From: Shigella phage ESh19
Length of the DNA: 64,000 nt
Reading direction: 5' to 3' (one strand)
Sequence record: ON528729
Shown here: piece by piece, positions 46,708 to 47,157 of the stretch
Numbering within the stretch: position 1 is the first letter of the stretch
Layout of the letters: every line of letters begins with the position of its first letter
Position numbers and translations under genes: made by a program
The notes under the pieces: generated by a model
Databases searched by the model: none
What the model saw: only the letters and a program-made list of their open reading frames with translations
Told to the model about the DNA's origin: nothing

Positions 46708-46854
46708 ATTAAATCATCTTTGCAGTAACCTACGCAAACCTTGCTAAAGGGTTTGTAGAGTTGTCTCTTAGTAAGCTAATCTAGAATCATGCTCAAGAAA
46801 CTCATCGGCACTCATGGGACGACATATTAGCTCCATAAGTCACTGCAAAGAGGA

Positions 46855-46868
46855 TTACCAGACCGTAT
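46855..46868 (-). repeat. tRNA-island flank motif A (ATACGGTCTGGTAA on minus); other copies 46995-47011, 47483-47497, 47643-47656
   Basis: Four near-identical copies, two lying about 10 nt upstream of tRNA 5' ends (Asn, Met). Confidence 0.5.
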
Positions 46869-47157
46869 TTATCTTAAGTGCTTCCATTACACCAACACGC
46901 CGTAACGTGTGAAGGATTCGAACCTTCGCCTTTTCTTTACCAGAGAAATAGATTGTTTATTGTTTGCTGTAAACGGTCTTCTGTAAAATTGTTGGAACCA
47001 GACCAAGTTTTAAATTTTTCAAATTAAATTGGCTTGAAATATTAAAGTTGCTTGCTGTATTTGGTCTTCTGCTCCTTTAAAGAATACTCGTAAGAACTCT
47101 TTAAGGGAGGGGCTAACAAGCCCTCTCAAACATCATTTTGAAATACTTATTATAATT

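Follow-up and report, generated by a model that had tools for sequence, protein, structure and literature searches.

What occupies the 450-nucleotide (nt) gap in the transfer RNA (tRNA) gene array of Shigella phage ESh19 (sequence record ON528729)? We analyzed a 64,000-nt stretch of this DNA, referred to below as the window. It belongs to a Felix-O1-like myovirus (Ounavirinae), and its bases 46000-48000 are 98% identical to those of Citrobacter phage BSwM KMM4 and Shigella phages SFPB and Sf18. ARAGORN identifies 25 tRNA genes, from 47882 to 42795, all on the minus strand, and the gap (46708-47157) lies between tRNA-Asp (47234-47158) and tRNA-Lys (46707-46632). A preliminary description of this spacer had suggested that it may hold a degenerate or non-canonical tRNA, or other small RNAs. 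The small-RNA direction was right, but the tRNA-like part is a complete, permuted domain rather than a decayed gene. The spacer holds small structured non-coding RNAs and no dead tRNA, namely at least two members of a Y-RNA-like family and a third structured RNA, and for all of its features, as for the 25 tRNAs, the RNA sense is that of the minus strand. The family has four minus-strand copies in the window, E1-E4, with E3 and E4 in the spacer and E1 and E2 between neighboring tRNAs. These elements are structured, conserved, confined to the tRNA strand and genomically linked to a gene for a Ro60-fold protein. We consider it likely that E1-E4 are non-coding, tRNA-strand, Y-RNA-like ligands of this phage-encoded Ro-like protein.

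The preliminary description had pointed to a perfect T-arm-like element, GAAGG-ATTCGAA-CCTTC, without a matching acceptor stem, and to a hairpin ACACG...CGTGT next to it. Both are present, the first at 46911-46927 (as RNA, GAAGG-UUCGAAU-CCUUC, 46927-46911 on the minus strand) and the second at 46895-46910. However, the hairpin is itself a closed acceptor stem, so the supposedly orphan T arm does have an acceptor partner. Both belong to a tRNA-like domain (46878..46948, minus strand) lodged in the loop of E4, the long element of the family (46855..46986, minus strand). In RNA order, the domain comprises a V/anticodon-like hairpin, UUUCU-CUGGUAA-AGAAA (46948-46932), followed by the linker AGGC, the T arm (46927-46911), an acceptor-like hairpin ACACGU-UACG-GCGUGU (46910-46895) closed by its UACG loop, the dinucleotide U-G (46894-46893) and a D arm GUGU-AAUGGAA-GCAC (46892-46878). 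Bases typical of tRNA can be read from the sequence: a U8-like U, A14, GG and A21 in the D loop, with a T loop that reads UUCGAAU. E4 can thus be read as a tRNA with a loop-closed acceptor stem and relocated ends, that is, as a circular permutation.

Could the spacer instead represent a degenerate tRNA pseudogene accompanied by repeated debris from tRNA-gene duplication, without any function? Relaxed non-coding RNA scans, which the preliminary description had recommended along with a comparison of related genomes, did return a match to the Rfam tRNA model at 46977-46903 on the minus strand, but it barely passes (29.6 bits against a gathering score of 29). The alignment covers the V, T and 3'-acceptor parts, has four non-standard acceptor pairs and leaves the D region unaligned, so that there is no D arm in linear order; ARAGORN calls no tRNA in the 46708-47157 spacer. 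In a canonical tRNA the ends form the acceptor stem and the order is acceptor, D, anticodon and T, whereas the order in E4 is permuted. It is also true that in these phages the tRNA arrays vary through gain and loss of genes and of homing endonucleases. All this would fit a pseudogene, but the complete set of T, acceptor and D arms, merely permuted, would not, and neither would the comparison of relatives. As a 141-nt element, E4 is kept in 245 of 251 matching phage records, all 245 of them Felix-O1-like, and is unannotated in almost all matches listed, including Felix O1, SUSP2, Moogle and DR094.

We aligned nine E4 orthologs from phages in which identity of the Ro-like protein goes down to 54%. 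RNAalifold predicted all six helices, and 14 of the 31 base pairs showed compensatory changes. In this alignment, 98.6% of cells are paired, as opposed to 88% in shuffled alignments and about 45% when the partners are slid, and none of the 500 shuffles reached any of the observed measures of pairing. The acceptor hairpin is the most variable helix, with six of seven pairs changed on both sides (its versions include ACACGU, ACUCG, ACCCUUC and CGCUCCC), while the T and D arms are nearly invariant. This pattern, the conservation in 245 genomes and the occurrence of the same closing stem and motif next to related protein genes in unrelated phages without nearby tRNAs (see below) make the pseudogene explanation very improbable.

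An opposite possibility is that the domain is a working permuted tRNA gene, for example for Thr-GGU, matured by cleavage within the acceptor loop followed by joining or circularization. The loop CUGGUAA has U33-like and purine-37-like positions, and in the versions of Citrobacter phage Moogle and of locus L082, the 54% relative, the acceptor loop starts with GCCA or ACCA right after the 3' acceptor strand. In addition, a permuted tmRNA-type call by ARAGORN starts in the Moogle E4, and an RtcB ligase is linked to the related gene in a Listeria phage. Yet the anticodon-like loop is variable, consisting of six nucleotides in Felix O1 and reading AUUUUCA in Moogle and CUGCUAA in L082, and the acceptor stem in the window is closed by the 4-nt UACG loop and lacks CCA. 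The closing stem and motif of the family surround the domain in every case. The ARAGORN call, which stretches over 749 nt and takes in real tRNAs, must be spurious. We therefore regard a functional permuted tRNA as extremely improbable. The CCA-bearing acceptor loops suggest that the tRNA-like domain originated where two tandem tRNA genes met. As for the Moogle record itself (L085, NC_027293.1), the spurious 'tmRNA*' was evidently triggered by the permuted domain with GCCA, and the tRNA strand given in GenBank is opposite to that determined by ARAGORN.

What, then, do the four elements have in common? On the minus strand, the window contains four copies of 5'-CAGAAGRCC-NN-WWUACAGCAA...NN-GGUCUGGU-3'. 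E1 (47643..47717) nearly fills the tRNA-Glu/tRNA-Met spacer and E2 (47484..47554) the tRNA-Met/tRNA-Asn spacer, both outside 46708-47157, whereas E3 (46994..47075) is a short element within it that occupies the same place in relatives. All four adopt one fold: a lower stem of 4-5 base pairs (bp), an internal loop with AGA opposite a single G, and a 7-bp upper stem starting with A-U and G-C, after which come an unpaired UWACAGCAA and a loop of variable make-up, which is short in E1-E3. The lower stem of E4 is UUAC/GUAA, its AGA/G internal loop is followed by the upper stem AGACCGU/ACGGUCU, and the motif is UUACAGCAAACA (46972-46961). E3 has the lower stem GGAGC/GUUCC, the same AGA/G loop, the upper stem AGACCAA/UUGGUCU, the motif AUACAGCAAGCA and a small AU-rich hairpin in the loop. 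The 'flank motifs' of the preliminary description are real sequences, but they flank nothing; they are the 5' and 3' strands of these closing stems. Their numbers exceed expectation, with four copies of CAGAAGACC..ACAGCAA against 0.81 expected and seven matches to GGTCTGGT against 1.25.

The copies also support each other's structure. The upper stems covary between copies, with GU/AC in E2 and E4 and AA/UU in E1 and E3, as do the lower stems (UGAC/GUCA, UUAC/GUAA and GGAGC/GUUCC). Several G-U pairs, namely those in E1, in the E4 copy of locus L001 and in the T arm of Felix O1, can form on the minus-strand RNA only; for instance, the G-U pair in the E1 upper stem AGGCCAA/UUGGUCU would be an A-C mismatch on the plus strand. 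Given the strict strand bias and the G-U pairs, we rejected a DNA-level repeat or a recombination site. A promoter and a terminator were also set aside as interpretations: E4 contains a single promoter-like match, a weak one (9/12), and what looks like a 'terminator' on the plus strand is simply the T arm.

The candidate partner is encoded upstream. The gene at 48048..49463 on the minus strand specifies a 471-residue protein with Pfam domains DUF2828 and DUF7788, corresponding to a helical ring and a vWA domain, and E4 starts 1062 nt downstream of its stop codon on the same strand. Pfam TROVE did not match this protein, and a profile search of PDB sequences found Ro60 alone, and weakly (E = 0.9 to 1yvp). 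Since sequence searches against PDB were essentially negative, the relationship to Ro60 is established by fold comparison only. The AlphaFold2 model (pLDDT 88.9, pTM 0.89) was compared with PDB using Foldseek, and the top 11 matches were all Ro60/TROVE structures, aligned over the full length with E values from 2e-8 to 3e-6 and mostly TM of 0.5-0.6; Thermus phage phiLo Ro60 was among them. The modeled fold thus shows the DUF2828/DUF7788 protein to be a structural homolog of Ro60. Its homologs are present in 709 phage records of one collection, and in mycobacteriophages they are annotated as 'Ro-like RNA binding protein'. A similar arrangement has been described for Bas63, whose Ro60-like gp130 is encoded immediately upstream of tRNAs and counters the Ppl defense; the authors of that study, the PhageMaP preprint, guessed that 'some tRNA genes are possibly Y RNAs' (PMC11482910). 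We infer that Bas63 gp130 is the counterpart of the 48048..49463 gene.

If the RNAs are partners of this protein, related elements should accompany related genes. We surveyed 80 viral loci encoding relatives of the protein together with two intermediate relatives (L001-L082). A relaxed element descriptor, run on 83 sequences (the DUF2828 loci and the window), matched 148 times on the gene strand, as opposed to 26 times on the opposite strand and 21 times in shuffled sequences. The matches concentrate within 1 kilobase (kb) of the gene, and 41 of the 72 distant loci have one within 2 kb. Features that the descriptor did not require were conserved as well: a U two bases before CAGCA in all 45 seeds (45/45) and, in at least 90%, a following A. 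Searching 936 kb with a covariance model derived from these seeds, R1, we obtained 45 matches (E<=1), and every one lies on the strand of the gene. Within the window, the model recovered E1-E4 and nothing else, scoring 30.7 bits for E1, 37.4 bits for E2 and 32.8 bits (E = 1.5e-4) for E3. The reverse test, which is not circular, scanned viral contigs for AAG-N5-TTACAGCAAAC. A same-strand DUF2828 gene was present in the stretch examined for 11 of 22 matches with a closed stem and for none of 100 matches without one.

Individual loci show how far the family extends. In L082, at least four elements occupy tRNA spacers; their stems differ widely in sequence (AGUAUC/GAUACU, AGACUAU/GUAGUCU, AGACUCU/AGAGUCU and AGUGUCU/GGACACU), and they keep the bulge, the AG...CU-G frame and the UACAGCAA motif. 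L009, a 149-kb phage contig in which the protein is 46% identical, carries five tandem elements right after the gene, two of them with permuted tRNA-like domains. Short copies also occur in the 5' untranslated region (5'-UTR) of the gene itself. Those of L010 (5952-5987) and L015 (5954-5987) are 34-36 nt long, stop 12-14 nt short of the DUF2828 start codon and abut a purine-rich ribosome-binding site, and copies of 33-42 nt occupy the same position in L014, L017, L018, L041 and L053. This layout is that of an autoregulatory operator, and the sequences suggest that the Ro-like protein may regulate its own translation.

The same survey bears on the possibility that the elements are simply processing sites of the tRNA precursor, for RNase III, E or P, or folding insulators, and have nothing to do with the Ro-like protein. 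E1 and E2 fill the spaces between tRNAs almost exactly, 28 of the 72 distant loci have both tRNAs and elements, and all tRNAs (477/477) are co-oriented with the gene. However, 15 distant loci have an element and no tRNA within about 6 kb, which ties the elements to the gene and not to tRNA arrays. Moreover, some copies lie in the 5'-UTR of the DUF2828 gene, most tRNA junctions in the window lack an element, and a single-stranded motif that does not vary is more indicative of a sequence-specific binder than of a nuclease that reads helices. We find a processing role unlikely. The tRNA data also stand on their own: the 477 tRNA genes lie within about 6 kb of DUF2828 genes in 82 loci, and 30 of the 72 distant loci carry tRNAs, so that the Ro-like gene appears as a regular companion of phage tRNA arrays.

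The 5'-UTR copies raise another question, namely whether the elements act only in cis, recruiting the Ro-like protein or another factor to the nascent tRNA transcript or to its own mRNA, and are never released. The 33-42-nt copies that abut DUF2828 ribosome-binding sites in several phages are in line with this idea, as is the known ability of Ro60 to bind misfolded RNA precursors (PMC4201824). On the other hand, the elements in the window are downstream of the gene, behind two promoter-like sites, and are bounded by tRNA processing sites, and the tRNA-like module of E4 parallels free YrlA RNAs. The two sites, of sigma-70 type and judged by consensus matches only, are near-consensus (48029->48001 and 47939->47910 on the minus strand, with 10/12 and 11/12 matches, respectively) and sit between the Ro-like gene and the first tRNA. 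Sites of this purely cis-acting kind seem to us quite unlikely for the window.

How do E1-E4 as probable Ro-like protein ligands compare with known Y RNAs? YrlA RNAs (Y RNA-like A), tRNA mimics of bacteria and mycobacteriophages, are bound by Ro60/Rsr; the GNCGAA motif of their terminal stem, near the 5' end, is the putative Ro60 contact. Their tRNA-like domain consists of T, closed-acceptor and D stem-loops, often after a less conserved V stem-loop, and they share their strand with the Ro60 gene, from which they are at most 4 kb away (Chen et al. 2014, PMC4201824). E4 resembles them in having its presumed protein-binding site in the terminal stem, in the domain order V, T, closed acceptor and D, in nearly invariant T and D arms combined with a covarying acceptor, and in lying within 4 kb of a Ro-type gene on the same strand, although here the protein is of the DUF2828 type. 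The differences are equally clear. The partner would be a DUF2828/DUF7788 paralog and not a Pfam-TROVE Ro60, the position of the GNCGAAN0-1G motif carries ACAGCAA(A/U) in E4 (the family motif being UWACAGCAA), and E4 is embedded in a tRNA array with three short copies that have no tRNA-like module. The Rfam YrlA model (RF02553) nevertheless responds to tRNA-like members next to DUF2828 genes with sub-threshold scores of 38-44 bits (E values from 5e-5 to 6e-8). Such matches were obtained for L009, L011, L033, L069 and mycobacteriophage Moostard, in the latter case within the gap that directly follows the 'Ro-like' gene and has no annotation. When cmscan aligns L009 to the model, the phage ACAGCAAAU is placed on the GNCGAA segment of YrlA, and on this basis we propose that the motif is the protein contact.

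Other phages offer parallels of a looser kind. The tRNA gene cluster of T4 gives rise to stable non-tRNA small RNAs (species 1 and 2), released from the same precursor. The likeness is one of genomic setting, that of non-tRNA small RNAs among phage tRNA genes; these RNAs are not known to have a Ro-like partner. In Thermus phage phiLo, two Y-like RNAs encoded by the phage are bound by its Ro60, as is PNPase of the host (PMC12135203). As in our case, a Ro60-fold protein is accompanied by several Y-like RNAs encoded beside its gene (Yrl1 and Yrl2; PDB 9KOP, 9L5Y), but what defines those RNAs is a CGAA motif within an internal bulge, and they are located upstream of the gene; their likeness to E1-E4 is one of genomic arrangement. 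In a P100-like Listeria phage, very abundant RNAs have been observed within 2 kb upstream of an Rsr-like gene (PMC12282133). We found no paper that defines RNAs of the E1-E4 type themselves.

A Listeria phage locus, that of LMTA-34 (L089, NC_042048.1), holds an unannotated ROOL RNA at 1922-2473 (88.5 bits, E = 1e-16, just under the gathering score), located among tRNAs some 1 kb upstream of the gene for the DUF2828 protein. On the other side of that gene, 1.3 kb downstream, an RtcB-type 'tRNA splicing ligase' is encoded, echoing the bacterial rsr-yrlA-rtcB linkage. Group I intron matches were found a few kb from DUF2828 genes in two unrelated contigs, L033 (11708-11934, 71.5 bits) and L069 (12103-12310, 36.7 bits).

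Several observations weigh against a Y-RNA-like role for E1-E4. The canonical Ro60 motifs GGUCCGA and GNCGAA are absent from the elements. RF02553 gives no match to the window E4 at E<=10, which is why we do not file E4 as a YrlA member, and related elements score 23-43.5 bits, so that no relative reaches the gathering score of 69 bits. With the strict descriptor, 29 of the 72 distant DUF2828 loci lack an element. Support for the lower stem across the family is modest (mean helix 3.49 versus 3.21 +/- 0.09), and covariation of the upper stem in the family survey is circular, as its pairing was required by the descriptor, and was not counted. Single-sequence folding energies do not differ significantly from those of shuffled sequences (z from -0.65 to -1.46), so thermodynamics is not used as evidence. 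Finally, expression, processing and protein binding of E1-E4 are inferred here, and their partner could be another linked protein.

Taken as Y-RNA-like ligands, the elements would work as follows. E1-E4 would be transcribed on the tRNA strand within the polycistronic tRNA precursor and probably freed from it by the enzymes that trim the flanking tRNAs. Position, linkage and analogy point to the bulged terminal helix together with UWACAGCAA as the putative docking site for the DUF2828/DUF7788 ring protein. Helix and motif would play the role that GGUCCGA/GNCGAA with its helix plays in animal Y RNAs and bacterial YrlA. The loop would then be a variable effector module, which in E4 is a permuted tRNA mimic with a closed acceptor, as in YrlA. 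More speculatively, this mimic could tether the Ro-like protein to a tRNA-recognizing enzyme or to an exonuclease such as PNPase, or it might serve as a decoy during infection.

A further resemblance came from an unexpected quarter. Class I RNAs of Dictyostelium are 42-65 nt long and have a 6-bp terminal stem with AAG at the 5' end and CUGU at the 3' end and the 11-nt CCUUACAGCAA beside the 5' strand; their function is unknown, and they have been reported as unique to dictyostelids (Kjellin et al. 2021, PMC7919456). One example reads GUUGAC-CUUACAGCAAAC...AAAAAC...GUCAAC-UG, and it is paralleled by the phage consensus A-AG-N5-UUACAGCAAAC...AAAAC-N5-CU-G. Accordingly, Rfam RF01414 (Dicty_Class_I_RNA) is the best and essentially the sole non-tRNA Rfam match for the short elements. 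It scores 25.7 bits for E2 (E = 0.0066; the best Rfam match of the tRNA-Met/tRNA-Asn spacer), 19.7 bits for E1 and 17.5 bits for E4, 25.0 and 24.9 bits for two short elements of L009, 26.4 bits for L047 and 26.1 bits for L027. In the latter three loci the full-length model spans the independently defined elements to within 1-2 bases at each end, and neither the scan of the 64-kb window nor those of L009, L027 and L047 produced any further RF01414 match.

The shared features are a short terminal stem with AAG before and CUG after it, the motif (C)CUUACAGCAA right after the 5' strand, a variable interior and an A-rich run before the 3' strand, with phage cores of 54-69 nt. In E1, E2 and E4 the motif is UUACAGCAA, equal to 9 of 11 positions of the Class I motif, with 5' AAG and 3' CUGG, and in E3 it is AUACAGCAA. 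The differences are that the phage stem has 7 bp and is continued by a lower stem, and that Class I RNAs are eukaryotic and have their own DUSE promoter about 60 nt upstream, whereas the phage elements belong to a bacterial-type tRNA operon. Furthermore, the known direct binder of Class I RNA is the RRM protein Rnp1A/CIBP, and Class I RNAs have no known link to a DUF2828 protein. The phage elements, at 17.5-26.4 bits, do not attain the RF01414 gathering score of 41.5 bits, and in large eukaryotic genomes 25-27 bits amounts to background, as the outgroup table of Kjellin et al. shows (PMC7919456). The resemblance therefore rests on the coincidence of the matches with the elements and not on the scores, and we treat it as a lead, not as membership.

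Tentatively, and with more doubt than belief, we propose that the phage stem-UWACAGCAA RNAs and Class I RNAs may be one class, ligands of DUF2828-type Ro60-like proteins and a second Y-RNA lineage. If so, Class I RNAs, whose function has been unknown since 2004, would be Y-RNA analogs, perhaps gained together with the protein by horizontal transfer from phage or bacteria. DDB_G0281243, one of four proteins pulled down with DdR-21 (a Class I RNA) and of no known function (2020 preprint), would then be the obvious candidate partner. Literature searches on DUF2828 and TROVE returned nothing on Dictyostelium. Plants encode DUF2828 proteins. The Arabidopsis candidate ath_can_1 reached 40 bits on the Class I covariance model, with the stem, AUUACAGCAAUC and CUG (Table S4, PMC7919456), and was dismissed by the authors because it has no DUSE promoter (PMC7919456).

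The rest of the spacer is structured as well. Between E4 and tRNA-Lys lies E5 (46717..46851, minus strand), another conserved and structured RNA, about 135 nt in length. Its closing stem extends over about 19 bp, and it also has the hairpin CAAAC-CCUUUAGCAAG-GUUUG (46755-46735, minus strand). RNAalifold, applied to seven sequences, predicted 27 pairs, 11 of them with compensatory changes, and in L081 the stem sequence is almost wholly replaced. E5 has no matching family in Rfam. Its hairpin loop CUUUAGCAA (CUUAAGCAA in Felix O1, L081 and L082) is similar to the family motif UUACAGCAA. After tRNA-Asp come two hairpins on the minus strand, H1 (47127-47107), which contains the GGGCT-AACA-AGCCC hairpin of the preliminary description, found here at 47110-47123, and H2 (47106-47074; CCUUAAAG...CUUUAAAGG), the 3' end of which overlaps the E3 lower stem. 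Both recur in L081, H1 with a G-C to A-U change.

In the neighboring array, a tRNA-Tyr with GTA anticodon and a long variable arm is present at 47242-47330 on the minus strand, between tRNA-Asn and tRNA-Asp. It was missed by ARAGORN and scores only 22.8 bits with Rfam; it is annotated as tRNA-Tyr in relatives and carries a pseudogene flag in Felix O1. Relatives also have HNH homing-endonuclease open reading frames between tRNA genes (L081, 10032-10424; Felix O1, L083, 1462-1947), which the window lacks at these places, and such insertions indicate that the array is fluid around the conserved elements.

Felix-O1-like phages are widely used, for typing Salmonella and E. coli, in biocontrol and as models (Bas63), yet in nearly all of the genome records that we examined, about 0.5 kb of conserved structured RNA within their tRNA array carries no annotation. 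A Y RNA/Ro60 system of this kind would extend the Ro60/Y-RNA paradigm to the large DUF2828 family and to a distinct RNA motif, and would link Ro-like proteins to phage tRNA arrays and to counter-defense (Ppl). The extension to Dictyostelium Class I RNAs is credible but unproven; if that likeness reflects a shared partner, it would provide a concrete hypothesis for a 20-year-old orphan RNA class.

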